Assembly (NCBI GenBank): GCA_964367095.1
Contig: CAYIXE010000002.1
Span: 1-51,698, forward strand
Direction: 5' to 3'
DNA length: 51,698 nt
Origin: an uncultured Gammaproteobacteria bacterium
GTDB taxonomy: Bacteria; Patescibacteriota; Microgenomatia; UBA10105; UBA927
Shown: one piece after another, positions 12,001-50,234 of the stretch
Numbering within the stretch: the first letter of the stretch is position 1
Layout of the letters: each line of letters begins with the position of its first letter
Position numbers and translations under genes: made by a program
The notes under the pieces: model-generated
Seen by the model: only the letters and a program-made list of their open reading frames with translations
Database searches by the model: none
What the model was told of the DNA's origin: nothing

Positions 12001-15000
12001 ACTACATCGGCTCGCGCATACTCTTCAAGTGTCAATTTTTCTTCCGATGGATGCACGCCTATACCGTGATAGACAATCCCTGACCCCTCTTTATAAAACA
12101 TCTTGTGACTCTCAAGTGTTTCGGAAAAAAGTTTAAGGAATTTTTCCTTATTTTCTATCGATACATCACCACTGACAAAGATTGCATACTTATCTCCTGT
12201 TTCCCGAATAAATCCAAACGATTCATTGGTATCGCCAAACTTTGTGCGGGTTTCTTCAAACGCTTGCACGATTTCCTTTAAAAGATGGTCACCCAATAAT
12301 TTCTGCGTCGCTTCATCAGAAAGTACATGATTTGCTCCAAATAAATTTTTAATGTCGTACACTTTGGCAATCGTTTTCCCTAATTTCGCTAAAAGGGGCC
12401 ATGCCACTGAGCTCCACACCTGCTGAGGGGCGTTGCCCGAAGCATTTACCGATGCCAACCACTCTGGTGTTACCTTTAATCGCTCAGACTCCGGAAACAT
12501 TTCGAGTGTAAGAGGTGTCAATGACTTCTGATGCAAATCATCATAAAAGTAATCGGTAAATTCAGAGAGCACTTCTGGATTTGTTGAAAGCATTGTGTGA
12601 AGTTGTTGAGCAAGAATAATGTCATTTGGCTTACCGATAAACGACAAAAACGACTGGAGAATTGTGGTCTCTATCGCTTCGCGTTGCTTTACGCGGAGAG
12701 TATCGTTTTCAGATTTTGGTGGAAACCTGCCTGTTTCTTCTTGTATAGGTGGTGGCGGTGGCGTCAAAAAGCTGGGGAAGAATCTGCCAATGATAGTTCG
12801 GATTGGCTTCGCCCAACCAGTGTTTACAGGCAAAATGGCGTTGAGGAATCGAACCGTCCGTATTTTTAGGCTATCACCCACAACGATCAGCTTTAGCAAA
12901 GAAGGCATTTCAGATTCAAATCTACGAGGGGTATCTGTTCCATCATTACCTACAATCGTAATTACTTGTGATATTATTTTTGATCGTTCCACTTCTTCTA
13001 GATCTATAAACCGAATAATTTCCACAAACTCACGTATTCCTTCTTGCAAATTACCACTTCCCAACGTCACTAGTAAGGATTCCACATCGCCATTTATCGC
13101 ATGAAACAATATTTTTCTTGCTTCACTTGACCCACGTATATCCCCAAGATTTTTTTCCAATGCCTCAGAAACCTTGTTATATGTAGGATAGCTACCCTCT
13201 GATGTTACGTGTGCTTCCCAACCCTGTGTTCGTGCAAACTCACGTTGACCATATATGGACAGCGCTTCCGCCAACACATGAGCAATTTGTTTTGTTATTA
13301 TCCCTTGATCAGTAATATATTTAATAGGTTTATGAGTGTTTATGTGGACGAACTCATGAAACAATGCATCAAATATCCTGTTAGGATCAACCCGATATAT
13401 CCTACTAAGAAAACTTTCAGATAGGAAAATTTTTCTATACGCATCCATATAAACTAAAACCGTCAAATCACCAGGATACGCCTGAATTTGTTCTTGTTCT
13501 AATCGACCCATACCCATCGCCGTGACCCTTTCGTTAAACGCACTCAAAACTCGAGTAAGTTGTCTATCTGTCGATTCATCCATATACCCTATGGAGAATA
13601 TATATTCAAAAAAATTCATATGTTCATTATTTGCTCGCACCATCTCCGAGACTCTAGATAAATAAAATAAATAGAGACGGCTCATTAGTCTTAGAGTGAT
13701 AGTACTCCAATAATTCTGCATACTTTGCTTAATACTCTTTCGAGGAGTAGATTGAGATACTTGAGGCTCGATAACTTCTCGAATACGCGCCAGTAATTCA
13801 GTAAGATCTTTTTGCAACGTGTCAAGTTCTGCCTTAGCTACTCTAGTCTGTGCTTCATATCCTTTGGTAATTTCTGCAAGGGCTGCGTCAATTGCAGCCA
13901 CTGCTTCTTTCCATTGTTGTTTTGTACCGACCAATATTCCCTCAGCCGTTTCCACATTTGCATCTTCTGTTTTAACAACGATCCTGTTTTCTGCATTTTT
14001 ATGCTGGGCAACAAGTGTCTTTGCATTCTGTAGCGCTGTTACATCCCCTTTCAATGCATTCTCAATCAACGCTCTCAATGATTGAGCAAATATAAGACAA
14101 TTTGTGCAGCCGCCTAGAGGAGTAACTACTGCAGCAGCATTTTCTGTGGAGTCCATTACTTGCTGTATACCTGTTCGGATTAGAGACAGAGATCCCGATG
14201 GCGCAATATTTAATCCAAATCGGGTAAAAAATGGTGCCGCCCAGTTCAAAAATGGACTCTGGAGGATCGTTTCCAATGCGGGCATCCCAGCGCGGACAAC
14301 GTCAGAAACATTCGTTTGTTGTCTATAATTATTTTGAATCATCCTCTCAATTCGTGTCAGTTCTCCCCACGTAAAACTCATAAACTCTCCGATAACACTT
14401 GGTGGGTTTGCAGGGATATCGCCTAATCCCCGCTGGAATATCGGCGTAGACTCAACTTCGCCGCGAATTTTTTGCACTTGTCTAAATCGGAAATCCCAAT
14501 TAGAGCCAAAAAGGCGTAATCTTTGGATAATGGCTCGTGCTGATTTTCGCGCTGGCGTCAGATTGTTTTCTAAAATTTGTGTCCGTCGTTGGCCAAAGAA
14601 TGCTTCATCCAATAGAACCCCATACATCTGGAAGCGAAATCCGAGTAACCCGAGTGGGGAAAATAAACTCCCTACAATAGGGGCGACAGTACTTTGCGTC
14701 AATGTTCGGAATTCAGGTTTCATCTGTACTGTTCCTGCCACCTGTTCAACAAAAGTAAATTGCATAGGATCGCTACCCTTAGCGACATAATCGATAAACG
14801 CATACCGCAGCGGAGTCTCATGTTTAAGATATTCCGGTGCCCAAACATACAGCGCGATGCTATCAGCTAAGTCTTCACTGGAGGCCCGACGAAGCGCTTC
14901 TTCATTTGCTCCATATCCTTTGTAATAATCATTTGCATACGCAGTCGGCGGCAATTCATGTAGTATTGACGGGTCATAAGAAATAGTAGCCCCGTTAACT

Positions 15001-18000
15001 TCAGAAAACCCCCGATAGAATATATTTTCATACGCAGACGCAAGCGGACTATCACTAAAGCTTCCGTCAGGATTTTTCTGATACCGCATCAGGTGAATAA
15101 ATTCATGGGTCAATGAGGCCGCAGGAGATATATCTGATCTTCCCGTTTCGGATAAAAGCGTATACAGATGAGACTTCGGCGTCTTATATGCAGTGGTAAA
15201 TTGAAGACTTGCCAACCAGGATTTTTCGCTGTTTATGAGATCATTCCCGGCTATTGCGTAGTAAGACTCGCCTCCAGGAATACTTCCCTGCTCAACTTTC
15301 GTAAGTCGAGTTTCATCGGCCTGCATAAATCGATAAAATGGCGCTAGGCCGGTAAGAGCTCTTTGGATATCGCCAAGCTCGTCACTTGTCAAAGCCAAAC
15401 TTTGTTGTGAAAATCGAACGTCTATGGACTGTCCTCCCGTGTTATTGAAAACAAGATTTGGTATCGCAGTCGGTTCGATTCGATTTGTTATCGTATCTAG
15501 TGAAAAAGATGCAAGATATGCTTGTGTTTCTGAGGAAGGCTTGGCAGTGGACAGATTCCCCTGCAAATTTAGTGCCGATGATATCCAACCACTTTGAGTC
15601 AGTTCTATTATCCAACTTTCAACCAATTTATCCTCACCGGATTGATTTGGATGAACCACATCTATTAAATCAGATGGCTTTATGACTCCATGAAGATCTT
15701 TAGTAACTATTACCGGAGATTGTGTCGTAGATATTTGCCCTGCCAAGTCCTCGTACAATCTGTTTAATTCAACTACTTTTGCATCATAGGTAGCATCTGT
15801 TGACGGCAGCACAGAGGATAACACGATTTTTACATTCGGATTTTTTGATCGAAGTATTCCTATGATTGCCTGTATATTTTTAATCGTTACTTTTTCCAAA
15901 TCAAAATCAGACACTATATCATTCACTCCTAATTCTAAAATCACAAGATCGGGTATATTTTGGTCTATGGTTATTTCACTTATGACTCCATTCCAACTCC
16001 ATTGGCCGGCAAGCAAATCATTGAGCATTTTTTGCGTCGTATAGCCCCCATGTCCTTCCGTAGGCACAGCAGCTGTGTCCCGCGATCTTTGGCCGCCGAC
16101 AAACTCTGGTTGTAAACCGAGCTTAGTCAGCTCATCAAAAAACTTCGATCCAACCGATCCACGAGATGTTATAGAATCGCCAAGAATCATAACCTTTGGT
16201 GTAGTAGAGAGTGTCGAAGCTTGGGCTGGTATCGCTTTTGAATCCGCCGCTAGCTGATCATCTCTTCTCGAAACGCTCTCAATATTTTCTGAACTAGGAG
16301 GTATTTTTGACAATTGAGTATCCAGACTTAATGACTCAAATGCCGGAATCGTAACATTTGCATATACGCGATCTGAAATGATAACCCTAACCGGTGTATA
16401 GTAATCAATGCTTTTTGCTACATCAATCGGATCATACGTCCATTCTCCCTGTAAAAATACACCAGATTGGTACCCTGGAAGAGCCACATGGCTACCAACT
16501 GGTACAAGAATTCTATTATCCCAACTGTCGTCATAATCTGCTGGAGCAAACGATACATGATGCACACTTGAGGATAATCCGATTGGAAATTGCAGTACAC
16601 CATTAGCATATTCGAGGCGAGCAGAGTTAAATAACACATCATTACGAGCAATCAATTCAAACAAAAGCCCTTGATCTAACTCACCATTTGGGCCAATCCA
16701 TGGAGTGTCAGTCATGAAACTATCACCCTGCTGCAATTGACTTATCGTATCCTGCAATAACCGGAGCACTGGATGAAAATTGCCTTCAGTCAAAACCCTT
16801 CCTCCCATATCAAAAGCAATCTGTCCAAGCACCTGAGCTAATCGTGCCTCTCTCCCATATGCAGTTCCTCCCAACCAACCCTCACCAGTTCGAAGCCTCA
16901 CATACCAAAATACTCCTTCTCCATTAAGGTTATATGTTTTCCCTTTAACAAAGGCTTGCCTTAATCCTGTTGGCAATCCAGTTTTTTTATCATATCCAGT
17001 TGCGTATGATGTTGTTGCGATGGATGTAATATTCATACCATCAGGAAAAAGTGCGTCTATAAAACTTATAAATCCACTAAACCCGCCCATGGAGACTGAA
17101 TCTATCGGCCTACCGGTAAGCCATTCGACTCGTAGTCGCGTATTTTTTAAAGGGCTACGTGGATCATCCATATCTACTCCAGGAAGCGCACGTTGCTCAT
17201 CTATTGTTGTAGTTTTTGGATCATCTGGGATATTTGTCATCGATGAAGTATTAAAATAATGACCGTCGGCCATGATTAAGCTACGGTACAAGTTTGTAAC
17301 CGTAATTTCTCCCGTTTGAGTATTGAGGTAGACTACTATATTTTGGTCATTTCGAGATTCATTAAATGGAGCTACTCTACCTTTTAAGTCCTTCTGGGTG
17401 GACTTTTCGTTTTCACCAGCTGAATCTTCTCCGATAATCAGAGAGGCAACAACAGGATTATTGTAAACCGCATCTTTTTCTTCTTGCGTGGGATTTTCTT
17501 TACCTAAAATTCGTAACCAAAAGGGGCTTCCTTCTTCTTGAGCAAGTTGAGCTCTATGTGTCCGTGCGTATTCATATATCGGCTTAGAAAAAAATACGAC
17601 GAGTGGATTTTTTGTTTGTTTTGCTGCTTCCCAATCAGCCAGTACTTTTTCTTGATACATTTCTGCTGGTATTTTTTGAGGCGCTTCACCTACATTCTGA
17701 CTAGGATTGTCATATCCAAAAGGAGGAAGTGTTTCAATCGAGTTCGTTTGCTGTGAAATAATCGGGGGCGGATTAATAACTACTTGAGTGCTTGGTCTCG
17801 CAAACAGAATAGTTGAATACAAGGACACAACTCCAACCAATGAAACTACTCCTGATATTATTGCCCCATTTACAGCAGTTCGCATAAGTCGATTTTGTTG
17901 ATAAGTACGAGCGAATCCCTGCCCAACAAATTTGATTTGCCTATTAAACCGACGCACAAGTGATAATGAATCTAAAGCCTGATCATATTTCAAACGATAT

Positions 18001-21000
18001 TCAGCATTTGAAAGCACAATGTAGGCTTCTTGAAGTTGTTTTAATTCCCTGCGTACAAGAGCACGTTGTCGCCTTTCATAAGCCCACTGCCCAAATTTAC
18101 CAAATCTCTCTATAATCCTTCGACGTTGAAATTGTTGAACCTTTTTTTCATATGCTGCTTGTATTGCTTCTTTTGTAGCCTTGCGATTACGAATGCCAAG
18201 AATAGCATAATAATCCATGAATGCCTTCTCAGCTTTAACATTAGGAGACTCAACTATAATAGGCGTTATAATATTTCCGGTTTGAATTGGAGGCTCTTCA
18301 ATGGCAATTATCGGATCATATATCGGTTCCTGTATGTCAGAAAGAAATACTGCAAGAAGAGCAAACGGTCGTGTAAAATCATCTAAGGCTTTCGAGTTTG
18401 TTTTGATCTGATCTATTAAAGTTTTAAGTGTGGGTTCTTTCCTGAGGATGTCCAAAAATGTATTATGGAGCGAAGCACTCGTTAGAAAATCTGATCCAAC
18501 GATCTCATCGGGACCCCACGTAGTTTTTTCTAACGCCTCAATTGCAAGCTGGATTTGAGATATAAAAGTGGGCCATTGATTAACCTGCAATTTATTTAAT
18601 CCATTATATAACACAGGGATAAACAACATAAAATCATCATCTGTTGCCCCTCGGCTAAGTATGAACCCTTGTAACGATACTAAATTCTGCAAAGCTTTCT
18701 CGTTCTTTGACAGTTCTAGAAATAGTTTTTCGTTATCTTTCGTTTCCTCTACTCCTATTAATAAGTCTAAAATATGTTTTATCTCTGGCGTTGTTGCCTG
18801 ATCAAACTCTTGCTTCGCCCGTGCTTCTATAGCAACACGTAAATCATCCCATAAACCTACTTGCGTCTCGCTCCAAGATTCTGACTGCTTTTTCACATCG
18901 TCAAAGGCGGTCAACCGAGCAATTTGTCCGGCAACCAGTTCTTCAGTGGTTTCATTTATGGCTGGTGCAGTCACAAATTGAAACGCCTCACGTGCTATCG
19001 GAATAAGGTCTGCGATGAGACGTTTTTGCGTGTATCCGGAGTCTCCAAGCGCAAGTACGGCGTTTGAAATCTGATGTGCATCTAATATTCCCCGTATCAG
19101 AATACTCAGCTGATTATCTGATGTGTTTTTGTCGGTAACTGCAAGCATTACGTCACGGGAAGTAAGAAGCTCTGCCTCCACAATGGCCATTTCTTTACGC
19201 AGCCGTTCGGGTAAATTACTAAGCACGAATAATAGATTTACTCGTCTATTATGTGAATCATTGCGATCTTCTACGCTCGGCGTTCCCCCGCCTATATCGC
19301 TTCCCCCGCTTGGACCGCCATCACCATCCGTCCCCCCATCATCCGCTCCCAAATCAACAATTTTATATGTAGCTACTCTATCCAAAAATCGACTCAACGT
19401 TTGAACAGTAACAAGTGGTTTTAAAGCAGTGGGAAAATCCTCTCCTCCTTTGACCATCGCATTTCCCACCAAATCAAGAAGCAATTCTTTATACCACTGC
19501 GTCGAATACCGCTCGGTAGTTTCTTGTGTCAACCCAAACGCTTTCAAAATAATGTACCTATCTTCTTTATTGATAGATTCAAATTCTTTCGAATTTATAA
19601 TCGTTTGAATACGTTGCCGCTCTTCTTTTGTCGTTTGCTCAAACGACTTATTTGATAGAGTAGCATTTAGTTGTTCAACAAATTTTCCAGTACGTTCATC
19701 AACTCTATTAAATTTATAGAATTGTGCCAGCTGAATAATATGGATTCGCATTCGATCTACAACTTCTTTGGCAGACGGTGGGCTTGTTCCATACGCTGCT
19801 TCAAACTCATCATCTGGTATCCCAAGCTCTCGCATCTGTCCTACGTCAATGACACGAAGACGGTTTATCGTTTCATCCCAACGGTAATTCTCCATTTTTG
19901 GATCTAAGTTCACTAAATTCGCTTGACGCAATAAATACTGATAATGTACAAACTGCATCATCGCTTGTAGAACAATATCTATTGGATTTTGTTGGACAAA
20001 GATTACATCTGTTAATTGATCGCCTGAAATAAATTCGATGAATAAAACACCAGCTTTCTCACCATAATCATATGATTCATAGACATAATGTTCATTATGC
20101 CCAACGGGGTATTCAGCTTCGTTTCCATCCTCAGCGTTATAATTTAGTGCTGCGGCACGAAATTCGCTATATGCATTTCCGTCTAGACGAACTTTTGCCG
20201 CAACGTATTGCGGCATCGGTGCATCATTTCCACTTTTTATCACCTCGACAAGATACACTTTTCCTTCCGCGCTTCCACCCAAATACCGCAAGGGCTTCAC
20301 CGTCGCTCCAATTTCTTTTGCACCACTAAATATTCGCTGTACAAACAAATCGTCTTGTGATGTAAGCGCCTTTCCCATGGACAATATGCTGTCACCAACG
20401 ACCTGTGGGTAATAAAGATAGCGCAAAATATCGTTTGCGATACCATCAAATTCATCTTTCGTAATGCCAAAATTCTTCTGTATAGTTTGATAAGAAGATT
20501 CATCAAAACTAAAATAAGGAAAAGTTACGACGGGAACAGTCAAGTAGTTGCTGACGAGAATGTTTTTTACGTATACACTATTTTTTGTACTATTTACAAA
20601 TTCTTCTTCCGTCTTTCCAGAACGATCAAGCGTTTTAAACTCATCATCAAATTCTTTTATGTATGTCATCGTTTTATCCGTTTCACTCACTACCTTCGGC
20701 AATTGGCGAATCTCTACCGCTCCAAGTTCACGGATAAATACTGGCAATCGCTTGAAAAAGTCTTGAATTTTATCTGCTGTTTGCCCAACTACTCCCTCAA
20801 AAAAAGCTTTAATCTTCTCTCCATCCTCCCCGCTCAATCTCTGTGCTAAATCCACTGGAGGCATGGTTTTAATCATCACCTCTACCACTGCTTGAATTTG
20901 TCCTTTTTGCGCCTCCGTCTTCAACCCCATGGCGTCAAAAATGAAAGTGGTGAGTTGGTCAGAAAAAGAATCCTTAGCCTGTGGTACATAGGTATCCATA

Positions 21001-24000
21001 TCCTGCTTCAATTGTTCAGGCGTAATAAAGTTTACTTTGGACGCGTCACCATTCAGGAGTATCCTCACAAAAGCTTCATGATACGTCTTCAACATCGACA
21101 CCAAATTTTCATTTATATTCTCTCGCTTCCTTTGTGCTTGAGATGCCAAATCCTTATACTTCACGTCTGTTTGTAGTTGGTTAAATAAAGACATCATTTC
21201 ATCAACAGTCTCACGAGTAACATCACTTAGTTCTGCTAATTGTTCGAATGTGTATTGTGTATTGGTCTCCAATATAAATTGCACATACTGCGCATACCAT
21301 TGTATCAATCGCATAACTGCAAACGACTCCTTAGATAGGTTAAGTTTATGCAAATCAAGGCCAATAATATGCTCTGCACGTTCCACGAATGTAAGATTTG
21401 TAAAAATTCCTTGAAACTGTTTATCATATGGATGACCAATAGATGTATCAGATAATGCAGCTGGTAAAAGGGTAAACTCTGTAGGCAAACCAGGACTAGT
21501 AGTCAAATTTGATACCAATAACTGATCTCCTGCACTATCGCCTTGGTTAATCTCTACGCCGCCCATCTTCAAAATATTTTGACTGTCGAATCGAGAAATT
21601 CTATCTTTTGTAGTAGCCAGTTTGTATATTTCTTGCAGCTCAACTGGCACAAGTGAACTATCGGCGTTATTAGCTATACCAACTGCGAGCATATCGAGTA
21701 ATAATTCTCTGTAATTTTCAACATTCGCTGCCTCCTCGATAGATATACTCGGAATTCGCCCCAACATAACAAGGACTTGATACTGAAACACCTTTGGCAG
21801 ACTTGTAAATTGCAAAGATTGAAGTAACAACGACCGACGATCTTCATTCGTTGAGAAAATCAACACGTCTCGTATCGTTGATTCTGATTTCGGATAAAAA
21901 GCACGCGCTACATATTCAAGAAATTGAGCGTTAACTGCGATTGGTTGATACGGTTCTTGACTATAAGATCCAGGGTCAACAAACCGAAGCGTATCATCAA
22001 TGGTATATATGGCATCAAATACCTTATCCTGTTCAAATAATCCATTTTGACGAAGTAAATATTCTCGATGACCATATTGATATGCTTGTCGAACTGTTAA
22101 TCCTGGAGAGCCACTCGTGTCAGATTTAGAAATTAACAACTCCTCAAAAATAACATGATTATCCTTATCTATTAAATATGGCTTTACCGTGTATCGATCA
22201 GAAGTCGTAACAGCAAATTCGCCTTTTCGCTCTGCTTCTCGTAGTGTATTTGCCATCACATATTCATTTTCGACACTCTGAATTACTGTAACAACGTTTT
22301 TAGATTTCTGAACCTTAACGGCCATGTACTCCGCAACCCCTTTATCGTTCGCATTCGTTATATGTACCAAATAAACAAACCCAAATCCTCCTTCTGATAT
22401 ATATCCTTCTACCTTTACATCCCACTCTTGTTTTTTGGCAGACGAAATAATTTCTTGCACATTTGCACTGTCACGTGTATCTTCTAACGGTTTTTTCATC
22501 GCCTCAATTGCTTTAATCCGTTCTGTTTGCAAAATTCCGTCTTCCTTGAGTTTTTCTGGATTGATAACATTTATTTCGCTTAATTCTTTTTCTTGTAGTA
22601 ACTTCCCTGCTTTTACATTAAGTATTTCTTTGGAATCGGAAAATTTCGCTTGTTCTTCTCTCAATCTACCCAACTCCAATGCTAACTGTCTTTCTGCGTC
22701 TAGTGACGTAGTAAGTTCTGCTATATTCAATCGTGCTTGTTTTGACAAAGAAGCTTCCCTAAATGAAAGATCTTCCGCGTGCCCAATCTTTGCCGATACT
22801 GATTGAAGTACTCGTTGAACACGCCTATCCCATTGTGGTTGTAAAGTATTCTCAAATGCCACCAGCGCTTCGGAAATTGCTTCTAATTGTTCCAAAGTCT
22901 TCATGCGATTGAGTGCTTTATCTTTCATCAACGCCTCCAACTCTTCAAGAAGTGCTAACGGCGTCTCACGCGTCACTGCTAATCCTGCCGTATTTAAAGC
23001 ACTTTTTAGTGTTCTGGTCGCAGTTCTTAACGTATTTGATATTGGAAAAATTGAGACGCGCGCAGCCAGAGACCGTAGTCCACGAATAATTGGAGGTATG
23101 TTTGCTGCTTGTTCTGCTATTTGTTGTCGACGGGCATCAATTTGTACTTTTCGCTTTTCTGCAGCTCTCAATTTCTTTTCTTGGTCTGCAATCTGTTGTA
23201 AACGCTCTCGCTCTTTTACATCTGTCTTCCCAACTCGTTGGAGTTCTTTAGCATCAAGGTCAGCAAAAAATGTATCAAGTTTTGCTTGTAATTCTTTATT
23301 TTCTTTTTCTATCTGTGCTAACCGTTCCGTGGCGTACGTTTGGCGTATGGCTGCAACCACTTGTATCATCCATGTAGCCCTATCTGTACCTGCATCTGTA
23401 AACTCTTCAGGAGTCAATTGCCATGTAGTAGTAAGAAGATTGAGTATTCGCTCCTCAAGTATTGCATCCGAAACTCCCTGTATCGCAAGCCCTCGAAACT
23501 GATTTTCTGACACGATTTCATTCGCCGCCAAGAAAAGATTTTCTATGGCATCTAATCTTCGCAGCATACTCATGGATCGCACAGCTCCAAGTTCAATTAT
23601 TGGATTTGCCGCGGGCACCACACCTGACAGAAATGCTTGCCTGATAGTTGCATTAAATGATCCTTTGCTATCCATTTCTTCCAACGATGGCAACAATACT
23701 TTCGGACTCGTCAATAATGGCGCTATAGGGGAGCGTGGGCCTTCAATTCCCCCACTCTGCTCGGGCAAGCCTAAAACATACTCCGCAAATGGCTTCAAAA
23801 AGGAAATCTTACCTGCACTGAGCGGAGTCGAAGTGTTATGTGCCACGATACCATTGCCGATGAAGGTATGTGTACCATCTACTTCTATATCAAACACTTG
23901 CTCTCGTTTGCCTTTTGTAATCGAGACGATTTCTTCCCACCCATCTGCAGTCGCTATCCTATCGCCCTTTTTGAGGAATTTCACTTTCTGCCAAACGGTG

Positions 24001-27000
24001 GTATACTTTTTTCTAGATAAAGGACCATGTGAACTCGCTGATCCATGTAACCACTCATGGTGAAGAAGTTCTGAAGCCAAGAACCCATTGAGGATCGAAT
24101 TGGCCAGGGTCCTTTTCTGTTGACCTAGCACGTTTGATTTGACATGCTCTTCAGCATGTGATATGGTTTCTTCAGATAAGAGCTGAGGGATAACCAGTTC
24201 CCGACGTCGACCCAACATGGATGCATTTGTATCCTGCGGCGAGAGAGACAGCTCTTTTTCTGTACTTATAACTCCACGTTTGTCTACGCTCCCTAACCAC
24301 ATACAAGACAAAAAGAATTTTTGTCCTTTACCGATTGAACACACTACAGCTCTCACACGCACAAACTCAACAACAGCAGAAAGCGTCCAATATTCTATAA
24401 CCATATCGGATTTTTTCACTTTCCTGTATCCTTGTACTATTCCCGTGTTAGCAATGACATGTGGTACTCTTGGAAGAGCAAAAAATCTGGTAATAAGTTC
24501 ATTTATAGATCGATCTTTTTCTACAAAATGATTCCATCCTGTACGAGTAAAGAATACGTTACTTTTGAGAGCTTTTGACCAAACAGATGAACCCGCCAGA
24601 TGATTCATATAATATGCGCGAGCCACATCTTCCGAGTACTCATATGTATCTTTCTGAATACTATTAACATCATGAGGTTCCATATTTAATAAATATGGGT
24701 GCTCACTCGTTGTGCGGATAGTTTTTCCTGATGTGGTCGTCAATCCATAAACCTGCTGTACACCTTTTTTGAGAAGTTTATTGACGCGAGCAGGTTCAAG
24801 CTTGTGCGTAAATTCATTAAGGGACAATATTTCGTCGCCAGGCTCGATCTGATCGATACGAACATCCTCATACTCATCCGGATCCCCTGTCCCTCCGTAG
24901 CTTTTAGCGAAGGGGGATTTTTTCTTTCGTCGTCTTCGACGAAGCTTTGTGTCCCCTGTCACGCACTCAGGAATATCTTTACTGCTTGCTTGATTCTTAT
25001 TCTGCACCCCGTTATCAAGCGCGTTGATGATACCAAAAAGGGTTACGTTTTGTCCGTTGTTGGTGATAAGGGAGATAAGTTTGGCGCGAAGTACAAGATT
25101 ATCGAGGAGAGAAGACGCATCTTTGGCATCGTCCCATCCAGAACTCGTTTTCTCCAGTGCTTCGATTGACTTTTGAGTTTCGGTCAAGGCCTGGGGAATT
25201 TGAGAAGGAGCTTTGATCCCGACCGATCCAATCACACGAAGATAAATAGTCAACAGTGCGCGGGTATTTTGGACAGTACCGGTAAATTGAGACTGCAGAG
25301 AAGATATGGCAGTAGTAAATTCAGGATCTTTTACCAATGTATCAACAGCTTCTTTCAACTCTTTACCGGATGCATACGCAGCAAACATCGGGGCTACAGA
25401 CTTTATAAATGACTCCGTCAACACCTTCTTACGATTCGCTTTTTTCATGCCTGTCAACAGGGCGTTACCAATCTTTTTTGACGCAGAAAGCAATTGATTC
25501 TTGGTAGGAGGCTTAGGAGCTGGTGCCTGCCCCGGCGTAGTCGGCCTAACATCACTGCCTTGACGAGCTGGTTTAGGTCTACTCACATCAGGAACATGTC
25601 CAACAGTCTTAATCGTTTCTAATGTACGTTGTAATGTATCAAATGGTATCAAAGCATTTCGAACTACGTTATTTTTCCCCATCTCTTCATCAAGAGCGCG
25701 CCTGACCCATGTAGCAATACGATAAACATATAAATCATCACTCCACTCTTCTTGAGGCGCGTCGCTAGGATTAAATTCTCTCACTATATCTCCACGTAAT
25801 CTCAATAAATTTTCGATATGCAAGAAACGTTGGTCATCGGCTTCACGTAATACTTCGTTATATCTTTGGAGTGGTTCTATTATCTGTTTTTGTGATGCAC
25901 TGCTAAAGGCTTGCCTTAATGATGATGTCTGTCCAAAAATACTAAAAATATTTGCCGTATCCCATTTACCTTCATTTAAAACTATATTTAGAAGGTGTAA
26001 CGTATATTTTTCATAACCCGATACAAAAGCGGTTGTCCTAGCTTGGCCTATCGCAATATCTTCTACAGCACTCCCTTTCAGTCCATACGTCTTTCCCGCC
26101 TTTTCAATAGCACTCTTCACTCCAGGTGTTAGCTGTGTATACAACTCTCGGGATAAAGACTCAGGATTATTTACATAGTTTCTTAACGTAGAAAGCGCTT
26201 GAAACGTCGTCCGGCCATTATCGTACAAATATTTACTTCCTGCCCGCTCGTTTGCTGTCTGTACTGCAGTAACAGCATTAATCGCATCGGAAAGTGTCAG
26301 CAATTGATAACTATTAAATGAATTTGCCACTCCTTGAAGGTTACTTAGGGCATCGTTCACGACGTGTTCATCAACGTCATGTACTGAGTTTCTGCTGTTT
26401 AAGACAGGACGAAGCAAATCATATACGATCTGATTGCGCTTCCGAAGGACATCGGTTGAAAGGATCGCTTGCAAATCTGCCCCAAGCGTATCGCTAGCAC
26501 TTTCCAGCGCGAGTATTTGAGCTTGTACTGATGACACCCGAATATTATGAGATTTTTCTGTGTCGAGTACTTTTCCATTATTTGTCAATAATTCATACGA
26601 GATATCTATACTATCCCGACCAATTGCCTCTTTCAACACTTTATGAGCCTTTTCAACTTGAGCGCCATATCCATTCTTCTCAATACTTTTTTGCAGGCTC
26701 TCTATATCTCTAACGAAGTCGATAAGATTACTCTCTCGACTATGTACCTTATTCACTTCTTTTTTCATTCCCTCTGTCCTCGTCGCAATACGGGAAAGCC
26801 ATGTGTCAATCAGCGCTTTTGTCACAGGAGCATCTTTTTCTCCAGGCTCAAGCAATCCAAGATCAGATACTTGTTTCACTGCGTTAGTCAATAACTCTTT
26901 TTCTTCCAACTCATTTATCCGAGCCATGAGTGCAGCATGAGCTTTTTGAAGACTTATTACCGTGTTAACCAAGCGAATAGGAACCGTTTGGGTAAACGCC

Positions 27001-30000
27001 GCGTCCTTAAGCAAAGTCAGCACAGCACCCAGCGATTTTTGAACTTTCCCAAGAGTATCAGGCGTTTGATCTTCTAGGGCCGCTTGTCGCTCCCCTTCTT
27101 GAGCTACCTCGACAAGATATGAAACGATGCCGCTGCCAATAGAAACAAAATTATTTCTGTCTATTCCCTTCGTAATCTTATTCAATACTCCCTGTCCAAA
27201 ATCTTTGGCCGGCGCTAAAGCGATAATTTGACGAAACGCCTCGTTGGCCAAAACAATTTTTCGCGCATTATGACTAAAAGTCATCGCCTCTGCCAGTTCA
27301 GTTCTCATTTCGATAGCTTCTTTGTCAGTAAGCGTAATACCCAAATCCGAAAGACTTTCTTCAAGATCATCCATCGTAAGCATGGTACTTCCCTCTGCAC
27401 GAATTTCCCGACTCGCCGTTTCCATTGCGATACGTAGTTCTTGATCAATCGCTAACCCACGAAGCCTTTCCACCTCGTTATCTACTTCTGTCTGTGAAAA
27501 TTTCGAAGAAAGTGGTGTTAGAACAATTGGCAAATTATGAGTACTGATTCTTTCAGAAAGCTTGTCATACACACTTCGGTCGACGGGCAGTGTTTGTGAA
27601 GACTCCGCATTCTTTAACAACGCCAAATCCTTTTTTGCATTCGCTTTTGTTTGAGCTCCTGACTCAATATATGATCCATCGATAAATTTATTGAGAACAA
27701 CATCTCTTAGATGTATTGCGTTCGTAAAATTCGGACTCAGAATATCTAACCGAACAACATTGTGTCCATCTGTATATATCGCTCCGTAATCTTGAAGCAT
27801 ATTACCAAGTCTGATGCCAATACTAAACGACGGTTGCGTTGTATCCACTGCCATTCTTTGCAATTTTTCCTCTAAATGCGCTAAATCAGTAACTAAATCT
27901 GAAGTCGTACTCTGAAGGGTGATTGGGTAGTTCTCTGGGTATCCACCCGATTTAAGATCAGAAACAAACTTGGTAATTTTATTTTGTATCGATTCATTAG
28001 AACCTTTCTCTTGCCCTTGCCCAGCTGTTTCTTTTTCCAACCCATCAATATATCTTTGCGCTTCGATAATGTGCTCGTCATATATTTCTTCAAGTGTTGG
28101 GATACGCTCACGGCTAAGAGTATCAACGGCCCTGCGCTTCAAGCGTTCTACAAACCTAAACAAAGGATTTTCTGATAACGTTTCTGTCTTCTTCAATTCT
28201 TCAACTAGTGTGTTCAGTTCAGTCTGTGGATCCTCTGAAATCTTCATTGTCATAATCGCATCAAAATCCGACAGATACATGGTGTCTAAGAATGTACCTA
28301 CAGCCTCGAGAACAGTTTTATTTTTCTCTGAATCCTTAGCCGCCTTTACTATTTCATCTGCAAGTTTGAGTCGATTCTCATTTGAAGCATTGCTGTATAT
28401 TTTCGCCTCAGAAGGTTGATTGAGTATCCGCATAAGCGCCGCCAATTTCTGATTGGCAAAGTAGGCGGCGGTGCTAAAGAGCATTTCATTGCCAGGCTCT
28501 CCACTTTTCTTATGCTTTTCCCGCTCTGCGTTTACAATCTTTATAACACCCTCATATTTACTCTTGGCGTCATCATACTGCCCCGCTGCTAATAAACTTC
28601 CCGCTTCTGTAAATAATTGGACAAAAATTTCCTTCAATTCTTCACAGCTACCACATGCGAGCGGTTGGAGCTCTGCTCCCCTGTCTACTGCCTTCTCAAG
28701 ACCCTTTATTCCTTCTGTAAGCCCTCGCGCAAATTTATCAATGTCCTTTTTTTGATTAGCAGTAAGTGCTTCACCGCCTATTGGTGCGCTTGCTTTTTCT
28801 TCTATCTCTTCTACAGTCGCATCAAAATATGAAGAATCGTCAAATGTAACACGAAGCATAGACGCACCATCTCGCTTTTCAGGGGATACTGAAGCTACTC
28901 CAATTTTTAAAGAAATATCCCCATCCACTCCAAGCATTACTTCTACTCTAGAAACATCATGGTCTAATGAAGAATCTCTGTAGATATAGAATACATTTGT
29001 CAATGGAATCTCTTTCCCATCACCCACATTGATTTTACGTATACTGGCCGCACCACCGGTATCTAAAACAATTTTAGGAATTTCAATCTTTGATGAAGCG
29101 GTATCTATGCCTGTTTGTACCAATTTATTGAGCCCTGAAGAGTTAGAAAGGTATTTTTTGTTTAACGAAATATTTAATTGCCTTAACGCATCTACGTTAT
29201 CAGTAGTCAGAACAATGCTTTTTTCCGCTCTATATTGGAGCTCGTTCAACACCAACTCTAACTCTTGTTTTTTCGTGATTGCCAGCTCATCCGGACGCCT
29301 AGCCTTAGTATCTCCAAATCCATCGATGAGTCGTAATGTCCCTTCGGGTGTCAATATAATGTTTATTGAACGCAGGTCGCCATGAACAGAACCAGTTATT
29401 TTCCAATGATTTATAACATCCCTGACAAATTGGTTCACCTGTGCCAAGGTAAGTATTTTATTCGTTGCATCGAACATCCGAGTCCCCTCCACAAACTCAG
29501 CGACAAAACCAATAGTCTGACCATCTTTAGTAACATCGCTGTAATAGCGAGTAATATTTAATCCACTACTATAGTTTTCCTCTGTCCCGTATGTCCGATA
29601 ATATTGAAGCTGCGTTTGATTCGAGGAATCCTGAGGATTCTCAAATATCTTTACTGCATATATTTTTCCTGAGAATCCTTTTTCCACAAGAATAAAAGCG
29701 GACTCACCAGATAAAATTTTATCTCCAGTAATCTGGATAACATCTCCATTATTTAAAATGATCTTCGCGGGAACTATATATCCATTTGACAGCGTTACTG
29801 TTAAGTCCTCCGTCTGCCCAAATGCACTGAATAAGGAGGTACCACTATAAGGATATGTATCGGCTCCAGTTCCTTCAATTTCGACTAACTCCTCTAATGG
29901 CAACACTTCTTCAGATTGATCAAAGCTCTCCCACTCTGGCTCTGGAGGAATATCTTCCTGTATCGTAATCTTTGGAGATAGGAGTTCTTTTATTTGCAGT

Positions 30001-33000
30001 TGTATCAAATTGATACTCTCTGATAACTTCTCAAGATCTGCCCACGAGGCTACCTGGGCACTTTGCGCTTGAATCTCAGCTACTGTGGCCTTAAATACTA
30101 CTACATTTGGAATGGTCTTATAATCCAACGAAAGCATAGACTTGGTCACTGTTTTCCACTGCATATCCGCTATCTGCCGCAATAACATTATTTCCTGCTG
30201 GTGTAGTCTGTCTAATTCTTCTGCATTCTTTTCGCGCGCCGCTTGTGCATCTTCTAAATCAAGCCCCGCAATCATACTGGCCCTCTGTGCCTCTTTAATT
30301 TGCTTCAATAATTGCGTATCAGTATTTTTTGCCTCAGCGTATAATCGCTCCGCTTCAGAAAACGCACTAGTTAATGCTTTTATTTTCGCAGCATTTTCTT
30401 GACTCTCATCCTTACTAAGAGCAATCTGATTTTGAGAGATTTTTTTCAGCGCGTCATTCACGCGTCCAATCAAAACTGTAATATCAAGCTGCATCTGTAC
30501 AGGCAGTACAGCATTAGATATATCTGGTAATTTATCTATCTTGAGTTTTTTTGCTTGCCCTATAAGACTCTTTAACTGTGATTGACTACGGAATTGTACG
30601 AAATAGTCATCAAGTGTTGCATCTATAAGTATTTTCTCTGTATTTTCACCTACCGTGGCCTGAAGAAGCGTTTTATATTTTAAGACAATACCTTTGGCCT
30701 CCTCATCCGTCCAGTTATTCTTTAAAACCAAAGAGGACAGCTGTAGATATGCGCTGTCATACAAATCCTTCCTATTATTATCCCGAGCCATCATAAGTCT
30801 AAGATTTGCTGATTGGTAATATAAACTATAGATTCCAAATTGTTTCTCTGATAAAGTGCTACTAATTAATTTCCCTATCTCAAAGATACTCCGGCCTGCA
30901 CCCTGAATCTCCTCAATCGAATAGGATGCTTTTTGGGCAATCTCCTGTAATTTCCCGATGGCAACCGTAAACGCATCAGCATTCGCATTTACGTCCTCTC
31001 CTCTTACAAGAGAAATACCGTCGGAATCAAGACTTACTGTAATCGTCGCATCGCCCAACTGTAGCGTATCTCCTTTATGGAGTTCTGTAGCGTCTGTCAC
31101 ATCCTTGGTATTAACTTTCGTTAAAGAACCAGTATAGGGCTCATAGAACCACCTGTTATTGACCTGATGAATCGTCCCATGCGCATTCTTAATTGCCTGA
31201 TCTATGCCTATATTTGGAAGAAAAATATTTACAAATTCACCTGATCCAATAATAAATTTTTTCGGCCCTTCTGAAGTTATTGCCGCATCGATGGTATTTA
31301 TTCTTACCGTTTGATTGGGTTTGAGTGTCCCTCCGCCTCGCACATCCTCTATGATAATTCCCAGATCGTCGCCTCTATTTGTCTCAAACGCTTTACTTAT
31401 TCGATTCATCATCACCGTAGGAACTTCAAACTGTGTACCCAACACCCATCGCAATAATCCTATTGCTTTTCTGGATTCTATTTTCCCAGAAACAGGATTT
31501 CGCACTGAAACATATTGACCTTTTACAGCAATATCAAACTCACGTGTTTTATTGTTTCCATCGGCAGGCTTTACTAATTCCCACCCAACCAAAGACTGCA
31601 AATGATCACTCCCTGATAAAATCACAAAATCGCGCCCAGGAGACAAATGAAAGCTCGCATATTGCGCTCTCGCTTGTTGCGAGCTAAACATATCTTGAAC
31701 TTGTGGACTTTTTGCAGTCTGAAATGTGTAGCCAGTGGCGATGCCCTCATAGACGTCATTTCTGTTTATGTCTACTATTTTTGAAGCTACATAGGCTTTT
31801 GAAACGCTTCTATCAACCACTAATATTACGCTATCAGCAATTGTGGCAGTGTGCAGCATATTTTCTGTCGTATCTAATACATAAATTCCTGCGGTACTTG
31901 AACCATTGAACCCTGTTGAATCCCCTGTAATAGCGAGTATGTCTTCATTTGCACGGTCAATCGCATTTTGCATTGCTTCTCTAATATTTGAATCATCTGT
32001 TTCTAAACTTTCTGACAGATACTTACCGACTAATTGCGTGACCATGTCCGCCACATACTTGCTGTTTTCTCCGCCTTGAGTCACACCATCTGAAGTCACT
32101 CCTACCACCAACCTCTTGCCAGTATTAGTAACGATCTCAGCGCGATACGGCTTACCATCTTGGTATGAATGAGGACTACGCCTTTGATTAGCAAACTCTG
32201 CTATACCAGCAAGATTAGACCTTATACGCTGCGGCAATAATCCAAGCAACGAATCAGTCGCTTTCCCGAGATTAGCAATAGCTTTTTGTAATAATTGAAA
32301 CTTAAGAAACGAAGCATTCAGTCGATTTCTGTCCGCTGTTTGATCTGTTGAAGGTGCAAAAGAGGTGATCTTATCTTTCTTCGCTTTTGCCTTTGCATCC
32401 TGCAATGCTTTTTTCGACGCATACTCTTCAACGTCAAGGGTAAATTGATTTCGCAAAAATGTTGTATTTTCTTGGGACGTAATTTTTGTTTTCTCTTGTA
32501 ATAACTTCACCGCATTATCAATATCCTCAGGATGAATATCCTTAGAAGAATTAATATAATTTTTCATCGCCAGCGAATACTTTTCATACAATTCTGCCTG
32601 AGTTTTCAATTGTGCTTCGGTATACTCTGCTAACGCTACCACAGCTTGTGGTGCGCTCAGCGCTCTCACTTTTTCACTTTCTGCTAATGCAAGCGCTTTT
32701 TTAGCCGTCTCTACTTGAATCCAAAGATCATCTTTTTTCACTAAATGATCTGCATATTGTTTTCTTAATGGATCTATCTTCGCTGATTTGCTTTTATAAT
32801 CTTCTTCTAGCCTCTTAAGCTCTTTAGTAATTCTGTCTTCAGAAATAGTCTTAGCTCTAAGAGCGTTTTTAATTTCGTTTGCTTTTTGCGTAGCTTCTTC
32901 TAACGTGAGCTGAGCCTCTACGGGAATAGGCTTAACCTTTTCCGCTGGCTGACTATTTGGATTCATCGTGGTGAGAAATATCGATCCAAACCCAACCTGA

Positions 33001-36000
33001 CTGCGTGATGGTATACGAACGATAAATCCAGCACCTTTGCTGCTTAGCCAAATACGATCACCGTTTGACAACGTTTTCGCTTGAGTATCTTCCGAATCCA
33101 ATTTTCCGTTCTCGTTAAATATACTGCTTTTGTTTACATAAACGCCATTGGTCGAATTCAAATCTTCTACAACCCAAGAAGAACCAGAATAATATATTTC
33201 TGCATGATTTCTACTGACATCCGAATCTGTTAATACGATTGTATTATTAGTGAAACGGCCAATGCTGGCTTTATTCTTAACTCCAAATACTTTACTATCC
33301 AACTCTAACGTTTCATGATCTTTTACTATATATCCCAAATTTATCGCTGGTTCTGCGTCTGCAATCCCTATCGATGACATCTCGACAGCTTTTTCGGAAA
33401 GCGTTGGCTTTCTATATGGCTTTTGAATACTCGGAATAAACTGAATCGGCTCACCGTTGTTTGCTATAACCTGATCATCGCCAATAACCCAACCAGACAT
33501 AACATAGGTTGGAAATGAACGAAAATCAGGAGCTGCATGATCAAAATATGTTAACGTTGTCAACGTATACGCTAAAGGATCTCGACCAATAAAATTTGAC
33601 CGCAGTATTTCTTTGTAATGTTCGACAACTTGTGGGTTTAATACGGCAAATATCGGATCAAAAATTTCCTCAATTGTTTTAATACGTTGATCATATGAGG
33701 CCCATTGGACTTTCGCTTTAACGTCTACTAACTCGGCCGATTCTTTTATGAGAGCAATCGCACGCTTTGATGTAAATGGGATAGCAAGATGCAAAATCCC
33801 GGTATTACCACTTTCTTGTTGGGCCGAACCAAAATCACTCACCATGTGAGCTGTTTGAGCTCCCGAATATGCAGCGTCATCAAAATAAACAAAATCTACT
33901 ACTCCCTTATCTCCATTCCTTTTTTGCCACTGAGCCAAATCAGTAATTGACACGACTGCGACCGGTTGGCTTGTTAATGAGTCGCCCTCAAGCGATTGAC
34001 GAGCAATTTCTCGCACCCACGAATCGCTTGCTTGAGGATCATCAGACGTGACGATTACAAAAGGCTTTGATCCCAAAGATTTTTTCAAATCTTTCACTGT
34101 CTCGCGAAGTTGCTTCATAAAATCTTCAAACGAAATACGTGTTATATTGTTTGAAATTAACGTTGCCACGTCACGAATTTCACCATCAGGATGAGCATTT
34201 ACCCACTGAGTACGTTTCCTCTCATCAAATAACGCTGGTTTCACCGACAAATTTGGAGTTTCCACGACTTCTTCTATGAGACTCACAGCACCACCGGTAT
34301 CTACGACAGTCTCAACAATAGGCGCAATTTTCACATCTCTAGCTTGAACTTGCAAATGTTGAATACCATCTTTTAGCTTTACAATCCAATACAATAAACG
34401 ACCAGATCCACCAGACTCATTTTCATTACTTATCACTTTTGCCTTTACCGTAATCGTGTTCACGCCCGTTGTGTAGGTAACATCAACTTCATCACCCACT
34501 TTCACTGGATTATTTGCCACCATCGAAATATTTGTCGCACCAGCTATGTAGTTATATCCTGCAACGGGTGCAGGTTGTGCTGCAGGTGCAATTATTTTTT
34601 CTCTGTAGACTGTGTACGAACCATTACTGTTTCTTGCAAACACCGTTTTTTTGTCATTTATCTGAAATTGTATTTGATCTTGCACAATTTCTCGTTCAGT
34701 ATTTGTAGGAACATCACGACCTTTTGAATCCTTTACCCCAAAACGATCTATAGTGAAAAATAGTGACGTTATTGTTCCATCGTTTCTCCAGTTGGTATGG
34801 CCATATTGCGTCTGTAAATCAGACCGAACTGTGGTTAGTATCAATTCTCCTGAAGCATGCAATCCGATAAAGACTATCTGGCCATCTTTAATGTCTCCCA
34901 TCAATTCATAGACATTCAAATCGATTGCAACCGTCGCTACTGGCGCAGAAACTGGAGGAACAATCACTCTTGGCTGTTGTGCTGGCGTTATTTTAGTCCG
35001 ATTGATGACCCATCCAACGCCCCGCGCTGCTTGATACACGCTAAATGGAACTGTGATAATCCATAAGGGTATAACTGCTATGAAAAAAAATACTAAACCG
35101 ATTAACGGAAGACTCGCTAACCACGGAGCAATAAAGAATGAAGCTATGCCAAGTACTCCTAATGTCAATAACGTTCTTCTTAACGGAGCGTTAAGGATAT
35201 TCCATAGTCCGCCAGTACGTGCAAATATCGATTCCTTTACGATCGGCACCTCTGGTGAATCTTGTGGTGCAATAGTTGCAACTTGCGGCCTACCTGTACG
35301 AACTTCAAGCAATCGTGACAAAATTTGATCAATAAATTTTTTCCGATTTTCCTGCCATTGTTGATCAGATTCAGTAAACCCATAAAAAACTAATTGTACT
35401 TTTCCTGCATTTTTTACAATAGCGAAATAATCAACAAGCGCTTCTATTTCTTCAGCCTCTAATCCAATAATATCTTTACTTGTTTCCAAAATAGAATGGA
35501 GCGTTGTCTTATCTTCTGCAGAGAGCTTCGTGGTTCGCGGCGTCGATATATCCTTGACAAGAAAATTGTAACTTGCTCGTCCTAAAAGCGCTAACAACTC
35601 TGGACTCTTCGCTGAATCGCTTTTAAGAGCATTTGCTATCTTAACTTGACCAGTTTGGTACTGTGGATGTCGTTTGACAGCCTCTACCGGAAAACCGCTC
35701 AATAAACCGAAGCGTTTATCCTGAATTGGAGTATAACCTGAAATATTTAGCCACAACCATTCATTTGGATTTGCTATGAGCCACGCTCTAGGATCTTTTT
35801 GAGCCTCCGATGAATTAAATATATCAGAATTCTCTTGAATAATTTTTTTGGCGAGATCAAAATTTACTAGTGAATACCGCTCGAGACGCATCTCATCTGT
35901 CTCATCTGGGTGATGTATAAGTCCAACTACACCCCCCAAATCGTTAAGCGTTTTATCAATCTGGGCTTTTTCAGAATCTGTCAAATTCAAGAAGGCTTGT

Positions 36001-48572: not shown

Positions 48573-48602
48573 GCTCGGGATTACACGAAAATTTATCAAT
48601 CT

Positions 48603-48632
48603 ATTATAACAATCTATAAAAAAGTGGATCAA
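48603..48632 (-). promoter_or_regulatory. putative sigma70-type promoter of the giant ORF
   Basis: On the minus strand: TTGATC (48627-48632), an 18-nt spacer, then an extended -10 TGT-TATAAT (TATAAT at 48603-48608). The same 10-mer TTGTTATAAT precedes the tRNA-Ala gene at 49429-49438. Confidence 0.4.
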
Positions 48633-48744
48633 TAGTGACGATTTTGAAGACTGAGGAGATTTTTTGGTGTATTCACTTTGAATTGGCTCTATGATATGGT
48701 TTATCAAGGATTAACAAAAGCCCCGATATCCCCAAATGTTTCAT

Positions 48745-49455: not shown

Positions 49456-49526
49456 GGGCCTATAGGTAAGTGGTATACCGCTATCTTCGCATGATAGAGT
49501 CGCCAATTCGATTCTGGCTAGGTCCA
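49456..49526 (+). tRNA. tRNA-Ala (anticodon CGC), no encoded CCA
   Basis: Hand-folded cloverleaf. The acceptor GGGCCTA/TAGGTCC has G3-U70. The D stem is ggta/tacc with a GG loop. The anticodon stem is ctatc/gatag with loop ttCGCat. The T arm is gccaa-ttcgatt-ctggc with an A53-C61 mismatch. The discriminator is A. Confidence 0.75.
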
Positions 49527-49579
49527 CAAGAAAGAAAACAAATAGGACTTATAAGTCTTATAAGACGAATTAGTCAAAT

Positions 49580-50152: not shown

Positions 50153-50202
50153 CACGTCGCTATGGCATAGCGAAATAGGGGGTCCGATTCCCCCCAGGTC
50201 CA
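50132..50202 (+). tRNA. tRNA-Ala (anticodon GGC), no encoded CCA; 5' 21 nt overlap the end of the preceding ORF
   Basis: The acceptor GGGCCTG/CAGGTCC has G3-U70. The D loop is accGGta. The anticodon stem is tcgct/agcga with loop atGGCat. The T arm is ggggg-tccgatt-ccccc, with C at position 55 instead of U. Confidence 0.65.
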
Positions 50203-50234
50203 CACTTCTCCCGCTGAAAGCGGGATTCGTGTGG
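50200..50234 (+). other. extended stem-loop starting in the tRNA 3' end
   Basis: ccacac..cccgc-tgaaa-gcggg..gtgtgg. No U-tract follows. Confidence 0.3.

Follow-up and report, generated by a model that had tools for sequence, protein, structure and literature searches.

The window analysed here (the whole 51,698-nt stretch of contig CAYIXE010000002.1) contains, within a giant open reading frame (ORF) on its minus strand, a 377-amino-acid (aa) element at positions 23835-24965 that is a bona fide class 1 intein and not a bacterial intein-like (BIL) or PT-HINT domain. We propose that this intein is probably competent for splicing and restores the giant protein canonically, and that it belongs to a mobile lineage of Patescibacteria inteins in which the inserted domain, here LPD3-like, is the presumed mobility nuclease. 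Profile matches, catalytic blocks and the predicted fold agree in making the element a canonical class 1 intein. The original prediction had described such an intein inside a giant non-housekeeping protein and all three lines of evidence concur with it: the coordinates were right, the strand could be refined to minus, and the translation of the 377-aa segment, with Cys1, TTSEHPYL and the end VFDIEVDGTHTFIGNGIVAHN followed by Thr, was identical to that described. Its estimate of about residue 7870 can stand, since the true start codon is uncertain; counted along the whole open frame, the intein covers residues 7916-8292. It is in frame with its host, which stays open for approximately 8,000 codons on either side.

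Over positions 23775-25027 the plus strand has stops throughout all three frames and a plus-strand reading of the intein was rejected on this ground. Minus-strand translation of positions 23775-25025 reads ...NQASSKDIPE^CVTGDTKLRRRRRKKK...GKTIRTTSEHPYL...VFDIEVDGTHTFIGNGIVAHN^TSTPLSAGK..., where ^ marks the borders of the intein. With residues counted from Cys1, the class 1 catalytic set is complete (C1, T86xxH89, the block F Asp and His, H376-N377 and T+1; Table 1), so that every splicing position the prediction had named is present. The Pfam family PF14890 (Intein_splicing) matched with E = 1.2e-17 and 64.5 bits against a cut-off of 35.8, and the NCBIfam models of the N-terminal (TIGR01445) and C-terminal (TIGR01443) splicing regions both exceeded their cut-offs, the latter with 33.6 bits against 15.6. 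Among solved structures the top sequence matches were the Ssp and Npu DnaB mini-inteins (E ~2e-12), and the alignment paired blocks B, F and G position by position. An AlphaFold2 (AF2) model had a predicted local distance difference test score (pLDDT) above 90 over the two splicing halves (residues 1-100 and 320-378), and in a Foldseek search of the PDB it ranked the DnaB, gp41-1 and RecA mini-inteins first, with target-normalised template-modelling (TM) scores of 0.84-0.87 (Npu DnaB, 0.84). The profile search and fold prediction that had been suggested as a check thus returned both a Hint match and the horseshoe fold.

Canonical splicing is the most likely activity predicted from these residues. 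The Hint domain would fold after translation and Cys1 would undergo an N-S acyl shift; the N-extein would then be moved to Thr+1, Asn377 would cyclise with the assistance of His376, and an O-N shift would rebuild the peptide bond. The expected products are a continuous giant protein with the junction ...SSKDIPE-TSTPLSAGK..., for which the predicted tryptic peptide is DIPETSTPLSAGK, and a free 377-aa intein. Another explanation is that the element acts as a self-cleaving module of the BIL kind, in which cleavage at the N-terminal and/or C-terminal border predominates and splits a giant polyprotein into an N-terminal half of approximately 7,900 aa and a C-terminal half of more than 7,900 aa, much as proteases process polyvalent proteins. 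The linker that holds the intein is of low complexity and separates two halves rich in domains (FHA, PP2C and kinase upstream; LytR and GDSL downstream); like BIL domains, the family resides in giant or surface proteins that are not conserved (PMC7765530), and a Pfam scan of the giant protein detected no processing peptidase. However, cleavage alone has no need of a Thr at +1, a residue that follows 99 of 100 related C-terminal blocks (from 74 genome loci) even though Thr was not part of the search pattern, and the element keeps the full HN^T C-terminal motif and scores 64.5 bits as an intein but only 19.9 bits, below the 27.7-bit cut-off for membership, as a PT-HINT domain (PF07591). The original suggestion that the element is more like a BIL domain therefore holds for its host context but not for its sequence, and we consider cleavage as the main activity unlikely. 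A near-universal Thr+1, an intact active site and the continuation of the host frame together favour splicing over mere cleavage. The sole block followed by another residue (locus L069, Yanofskybacteria contig JACPNK010000005.1), where CMGKFHPHGD comes next, belongs to an ordinary GyrA intein that lies beside a family intein.

The original prediction had seen no LAGLIDADG or HNH motif in the middle of the element and none was found in the intein at E<=1 in Pfam, NCBIfam or PHROG. The middle is not featureless, however, as the approximately 225 residues between the splicing blocks hold a well-folding LPD3-like domain, with a core of ~135 aa, at the usual position of a homing endonuclease. A HMMER search with intein residues 95-318 against 1.84 billion representative proteins returned 70 relatives, 53 of which are free-standing proteins of no more than 200 aa (mostly 115-200 aa), the others lying within inteins of large proteins. 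The stand-alone genes have their own start and stop codons and are neighboured by unrelated small genes or by a surface protein gene; in some free-standing relatives (P0038 and P0041) the tail motif KELSLSP..GRRR..PQL, here KELSLSP...GRRRELVIPQLL, is also C-terminal. The near-invariant Gly, His, two Arg, Phe and Ser of the family are all kept in the window (G143, H146, R152, R160, F218 and S220). LPD3 (PF18798) is the sole Pfam family that matches: it is borderline on the window domain (26.4 bits against a cut-off of 27) and recognises 13 of 53 relatives, with a best value of 1.4e-7. The AF2 model of the domain, built from an alignment of the insert, has a pLDDT of 87.7 and consists of a long helix, a hairpin, two helices and a four-stranded meander; its best fold neighbours among the predicted viral structures of BFVD are phage proteins annotated as LPD3 (E 2.7e-4 to 1.3e-2). 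Searches of the insert against NCBIfam and PADLOC gave scattered single-member noise only and PHROGs gave zero matches. The six conserved residues and the confident domain model suggest that the insert has been retained under selection. Two antisense ORFs lie on the plus strand opposite the giant gene, at 22903-23502 (199 aa) and 23545-24063 (172 aa), the second overlapping the C-terminal part of the intein. Antisense and out-of-frame ORFs at the intein gave no family matches; these two were rejected as out-of-frame endonuclease candidates and are probably spurious.

The splicing domain also contains a family-specific basic loop, which begins with RRRRRKKK directly after block A and of which ~20 aa are disordered in the AF2 model (pLDDT 57-76, residues 11-30). 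A run of at least six Arg or Lys residues within residues 8-19 was present in all 76 related inteins with a recognised insert domain, and those inteins that have no such run also have no recognised insert. Nearly every member of the lineage has a loop of this kind. We propose that the LPD3-like insert is or was a mobility nuclease and that the Arg/Lys loop may assist it as a nucleic-acid-binding element.

Relatives were collected by a genome scan (one genome per prokaryotic species) with a block G pattern, taken from the C-terminal block alignment A3 and ending before the Asn/Thr. This gave 396 confirmed relatives in species-representative genomes, with 464 more in metagenome contigs, and almost all of them are from Patescibacteria. 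Named carriers include Daviesbacteria, Gottesmanbacteria, Woesebacteria, WWE3, Kaiserbacteria, Saccharibacteria and Peregrinibacteria, among others. Homologues of the whole intein were fragments only, all from Patescibacteria metagenomes. Viral contigs yielded only distant, generic inteins, and a phage origin is unsupported. Many metagenome-assembled genomes (MAGs; 'binchicken' third-party annotation, TPA) titled 'uncultured Gammaproteobacteria', 'Planctomycetales' or 'Burkholderiaceae' (L003, L007, L011, L012, L018 and others) carry repeat proteins of the candidate phyla radiation (CPR) type together with family inteins, and these titles look mislabelled.

The inserts of this lineage vary in kind. 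When 60 unique complete inteins delimited in genome loci were classified with home-built hidden Markov models (HMMs), 15 carried an NYN domain, 16 an unnamed domain that we refer to as EIDQS, 10 an LPD3-like domain and two DUF3800, the remainder being mini-inteins of 214-263 aa or inteins with low-complexity, apparently decayed inserts. Metagenome loci gave the same picture (EIDQS 15, NYN 13, LPD3-like 7). Profile comparison with hhalign gave a probability of at most 1.2% for the LPD3-like insert against either EIDQS or NYN, and thus no profile relationship, while EIDQS against NYN was ambiguous (51%, across the C-terminal part). EIDQS, of ~135 aa, is the commonest insert of the sister inteins (L007, L004, L024 and ~30 other loci); it has no relative in Pfam or the PDB, and its invariant residues (D7, S9, E13, K39, D81, Y84, G110, S113 and H116) would suit a metal-dependent nuclease. 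The DUF3800 inserts are at L018 (626-1018 aa of its ORF) and L036, with a Pfam E-value of 9.5e-10. The closest intein of the LPD3 type (46% identity) is at L077 (Logan SRR27730037_40660) in P0030, a protein of 3,223 aa; the recorded Pfam matches of P0030 include all SecA domains, which would make it either a fusion of a giant protein with SecA or the result of read-through or an assembly join.

Across genome and metagenome loci the family has two insertion contexts, both in non-housekeeping proteins. In the majority context the target is a motif that recurs within large repeat proteins, ...GTT.P...LHV.G[Q/H]^TY..GNVGIGTT..., which the inteins interrupt at a single point, and one repeat protein can carry up to three inteins with differing inserts. 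One such protein (L025/P0032, Sungiibacteriota contig JACPYI010000029.1), of 1,772 aa, has three family inteins with identical flanks, TSPAQLLSIAGH^C...N^TYLTGGLG, and with three different middles, a 278-aa mini-intein, an LPD3-like and an NYN insert. The minority context, which includes the window, is P[E/Q]^T[S/T] in Pro/Ala/Gln/Ser-rich linkers of giant genes, whose ORFs span the entire 16-20 kb fetched (L004, L024, L053, L068, L106, L136 and L154). The four nearest splicing domains (64-66% identity) are all at P[E/Q]^T sites and contain EIDQS, EIDQS, LPD3-like and NYN inserts; because they share a site class yet differ in insert, the splicing domain tracks the target site while the insert is swapped. 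In our proposal the lineage colonises non-housekeeping surface or giant proteins at two short target motifs. Copies at a repeated motif, mini-intein and decayed derivatives, the swapping of inserts and the free-standing homologues of the insert point to a selfish homing element, with the LPD3-like domain as its putative nuclease.

A different possibility is that splicing is the means of releasing an effector, the excised intein with its Arg-rich, cell-penetrating-like loop and its LPD3-like, NYN or DUF3800 domain being a payload against host or competitor cells or nucleic acids. The inserts are of the type found in conflict systems (NYN, DUF3800 and LPD3, the last in polyvalent proteins; PMC5512222) and not known homing endonucleases, the basic loop is strictly conserved, LPD3-like domains also occur as small stand-alone genes, and host proteins carry a hydrophobic or signal-like segment near the N-terminus and have a surface-repeat architecture. 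However, the case for release is entirely inferential, no immunity-like partner gene was seen, and the combination of several inteins per protein at a single repeated motif with mini-inteins and inserts that have decayed is the classic signature of selfish homing; we regard release of an effector as improbable, more so than self-cleavage. Less probable again is that the element has become an inactive relic, its Hint domain fixed, no longer able to splice and retained with a structural or linker role when the giant protein matures. The linker would tolerate a retained domain and no empty allele was found, but the catalytic and family-conserved positions are all intact in both the Hint and LPD3-like parts, and relatives that have decayed differ from it in having low-complexity inserts and a lost basic run. 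A relic is therefore very unlikely.

Several observations weigh against splicing and homing as we propose them. The window site is a Pro/Ser/Gly-rich linker and not a conserved catalytic motif, and there failure to splice might be tolerated and cleavage might even be useful. The GC content of the intein (38-47%) equals that of its flanks and gives no sign of recent arrival. An intein-free allele of the exact site was found in none of the protein, metagenome-contig or ~180-locus searches: the spliced exteins (350 aa from each side) recovered only a fragment of the giant protein itself (P0029) from 5.8 billion proteins, the fused junction region (326 aa) gave 600 pattern matches in metagenome contigs of which none was confirmed, and tblastn of the intein-masked giant protein against ~180 loci found homologous blocks far from the site only. 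With no empty allele found, recent homing is undocumented. The link between the polybasic run and a recognised insert could simply be shared ancestry. For the insert, no significant fold neighbour was found in the PDB by Foldseek (best E 0.27) or by sequence profile, and it has no similarity to LAGLIDADG, HNH, GIY-YIG, His-Cys box or other nuclease families in Pfam, NCBIfam and PADLOC. LPD3 itself was defined in polyvalent proteins of phages and conjugative elements and its function was described as elusive (Iyer, Burroughs, Anand, de Souza and Aravind, 2017; PMC5512222). Having no known LPD3 activity, no solved relative and no nuclease match, the nuclease role is a conjecture.

The original prediction had also proposed asking whether homologous giant genes lack the insert. 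The searches detected no homologue of the exact site with which to answer this, and presence or absence of an intein could be compared only elsewhere in the gene. In Gottesmanbacteria MAG contig JAUXTO010000018.1 an open frame of 9,632 aa, obtained by merging loci, contains two family inteins of the EIDQS type and has blocks that run colinear with residues 9243-9348 and 10160-10810 of the window frame. Between the two blocks is the second of these inteins, at a place where the window lacks one; there is therefore presence/absence variation among homologous giant genes, at another site.

The giant ORF that hosts the intein continues past the left edge of the window at its 3' end, and its candidate starts, which are uncertain, range from ~48632 to 48263. 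It is among the largest bacterial ORFs that one is likely to meet and has an odd mix of domains. An N-terminal hydrophobic segment lies at open-frame residues 56-77; upstream of the intein Pfam recognises two FHA matches, PP2C, two protein-kinase-like regions (Pkinase) and PRTase-CE, and downstream a DnaJ-like match, LytR_cpsA_psr and a GDSL lipase, with thousands of residues that match no family and only the one intein. Cysteines are rare in the giant protein (0.38%), paired and almost confined to its first ~1,800 residues.

One further explanation is that the giant frame or the intein junctions are artefacts of assembly or frame correction. A second version of the locus exists in the ENA (ERZ1286166 contig_3783, L001; 363,784 bp), and over 23.5 kb (window 10877-34411) it differs from the window by 26 indels, two of them inside the intein, which split the giant gene into ~15 called ORFs. 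However, there are no mismatches over this region, and the indels are of one or two bases (25 of a single base and one GA), mostly in or beside short single-base runs, a pattern typical of long-read errors in the ENA contig that makes the uninterrupted frame of the window the credible version. Because the gene calls are split, entries for this protein in the databases are fragments only; P0029, for example, begins within the intein. A stretch of 16,236 stop-free codons is impossible by chance, independent short-read assemblies of relatives have giant genes, called at 13,413 aa, in a locus with the same gene order, and the merged loci of another relative give the 9,632-aa frame already described. 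We therefore give an artefact almost no weight.

Upstream of the giant gene are two tRNA-Ala genes around a gene for a '23S rRNA intervening sequence protein' (IVP)-like protein, an M23/LysM peptidase gene and the 3' end of rho (Table 1). The closest named relatives of the M23/LysM peptidase are from Candidatus Gottesmanbacteria (homologue P0215). The order Rho, M23, IVP-like gene and giant gene is common to Hainich groundwater contigs. Their giant gene, with a called length of 13,413 aa, matches window residues 506-3222 at 55-72% identity; this orthologue lies at about positions 23,347-63,588 of contig Hain_H43_02um_R3_53_length_89160 (ENA ERZ1292635). From the relatives of the peptidase and from this gene order, the host would be an ultra-small groundwater bacterium, Gottesmanbacteria-like and of the Patescibacteria/CPR.

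Table 1. Positions of the intein, its parts, its host gene and neighbouring genes in the window
Feature	Position	Strand	Basis or remarks
Class 1 intein, complete, Cys1 to Asn377	23835..24965	-	377 aa; profile, fold and residue evidence
Glu(-1), codon before Cys1	24966..24968	-	Translation
Block A, CVTGDTKL with the Cys1 nucleophile	24942..24965	-	Family alignment consensus CVTGDTxL
Family-specific loop after block A	24861..24941	-	RRRRRKKK (24918-24941), variable spacer, acidic DPDEYEDV (24861-24884)
Block B, GKTIRTTSEHPYL	24690..24728	-	TxxH is T86-S-E-H89; aligned to Ssp DnaB block B
LPD3-like alpha/beta domain, intein residues ~100-232	24270..24668	-	HMMER relatives, Pfam, AF2, BFVD
Conserved tail motif KELSLSP...GRRRELVIPQLL, C-terminal of the LPD3-like domain	24177..24257	-	Also in some free-standing relatives
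C-terminal splicing region, intein residues 322-377	23835..24002	-	Profile, DnaB alignment, AF2 model
Block F, VFDIEVDGTHTF (VFDIEV..THTF)	23862..23897	-	Holds the block F Asp and His
Block G, GNGIVAHN with His376-Asn377	23835..23858	-	TIGR01443, translation
Thr+1, first C-extein residue, transesterification nucleophile	23832..23834	-	Translation
Giant ORF hosting the intein	3..48710	-	Six-frame scan; at least 16,236 codons, ~48.7 kb, stop-free
Two tRNA-Ala genes (anticodons CGC, GGC)	49456-50203	+	Flank the IVP-like ORF; the second overlaps the 3' end of this ORF
Four-helix-bundle ORF, 190 aa, '23S rRNA intervening sequence protein' type	49580-50152	+	Between the tRNA-Ala genes

Inteins typically occupy conserved sites of essential enzymes and carry LAGLIDADG or HNH endonucleases. 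The window intein and its several hundred relatives break both of these habits with a splicing core that is fully canonical. In the literature searched, coverage of which was incomplete, no description of this lineage was found under Patescibacteria or CPR inteins, NYN or Hint-domain inteins, or giant genes with inteins; inteins as such are already known, and it is the lineage that is apparently undescribed. What is new is its Patescibacteria-wide spread, its non-housekeeping giant and surface hosts, its sites in linkers and repeats, the mandatory poly-Arg loop and the exchangeable, non-canonical inserts. Perhaps, and we advance this more tentatively than splicing itself, the lineage has replaced homing endonucleases with NYN, LPD3-like, DUF3800 and EIDQS inserts plus an obligatory poly-Arg loop, and these would be either new families of homing nuclease or payloads released by splicing; if so, LPD3, to which no function has been assigned for nearly a decade, would gain its first testable activity. 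Should the window intein be active, a protein of more than 16,000 residues would depend on protein splicing for its integrity, and compact Thr+1 inteins that function in low-complexity linkers might find use in protein engineering. The family offers a natural experiment on the exchange of intein insert domains and a concrete assay for orphan LPD3, EIDQS and intein-borne NYN domains, and, for episymbiotic CPR bacteria, it adds a layer of mobile elements to giant and surface proteins that are poorly understood.

Compared with known systems, the splicing domain is closest, among solved examples, to the Ssp and Npu DnaB mini-inteins (1MI8, 4O1R). The horseshoe fold of the Hint domain is common to them (TM 0.84), as are all four of blocks A, B, F and G; the shared residues are Cys1, TxxH, the Asp of block F, His-Asn and, at +1, a nucleophile with a hydroxyl or thiol group. 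Unlike these mini-inteins, the window intein interrupts a linker of low complexity in a non-housekeeping giant protein and not a conserved motif of a replication or repair enzyme, and it has both the ~20-aa disordered RRRRRKKK insertion and the ~225-aa insert with its LPD3-like domain. BIL and PT-HINT domains resemble it in their variable, non-conserved and often very large or secreted bacterial hosts (PMC7765530). However, A-type BILs have no conserved +1 nucleophile and B-type BILs no intein C-terminal motif, whereas the window family keeps HN^T, and BILs, in contrast to the window intein, have no inserted domain. LPD3 (PF18798; PMC5512222) is the only family that matches the insert in sequence, and also the only one that does so in predicted structure, and a solo form exists as well. 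The polyvalent proteins in which it was described are encoded by phages or conjugative elements and combine many effector domains with a processing metallopeptidase (Iyer et al., 2017); the giant protein, in contrast, has a chromosomal context (Rho, M23 peptidase and tRNA-Ala genes) and no zincin peptidase by Pfam, and its LPD3-like domain lies within an intein encoded by a CPR chromosome. With LAGLIDADG and HNH inteins such as PI-SceI and PI-PfuI the lineage shares a bipartite plan, with a foreign domain between blocks B and F, and the signs of mobility, namely multiple copies, mini-intein derivatives and decayed inserts. It differs from them in that its insert is exchangeable among at least four types.

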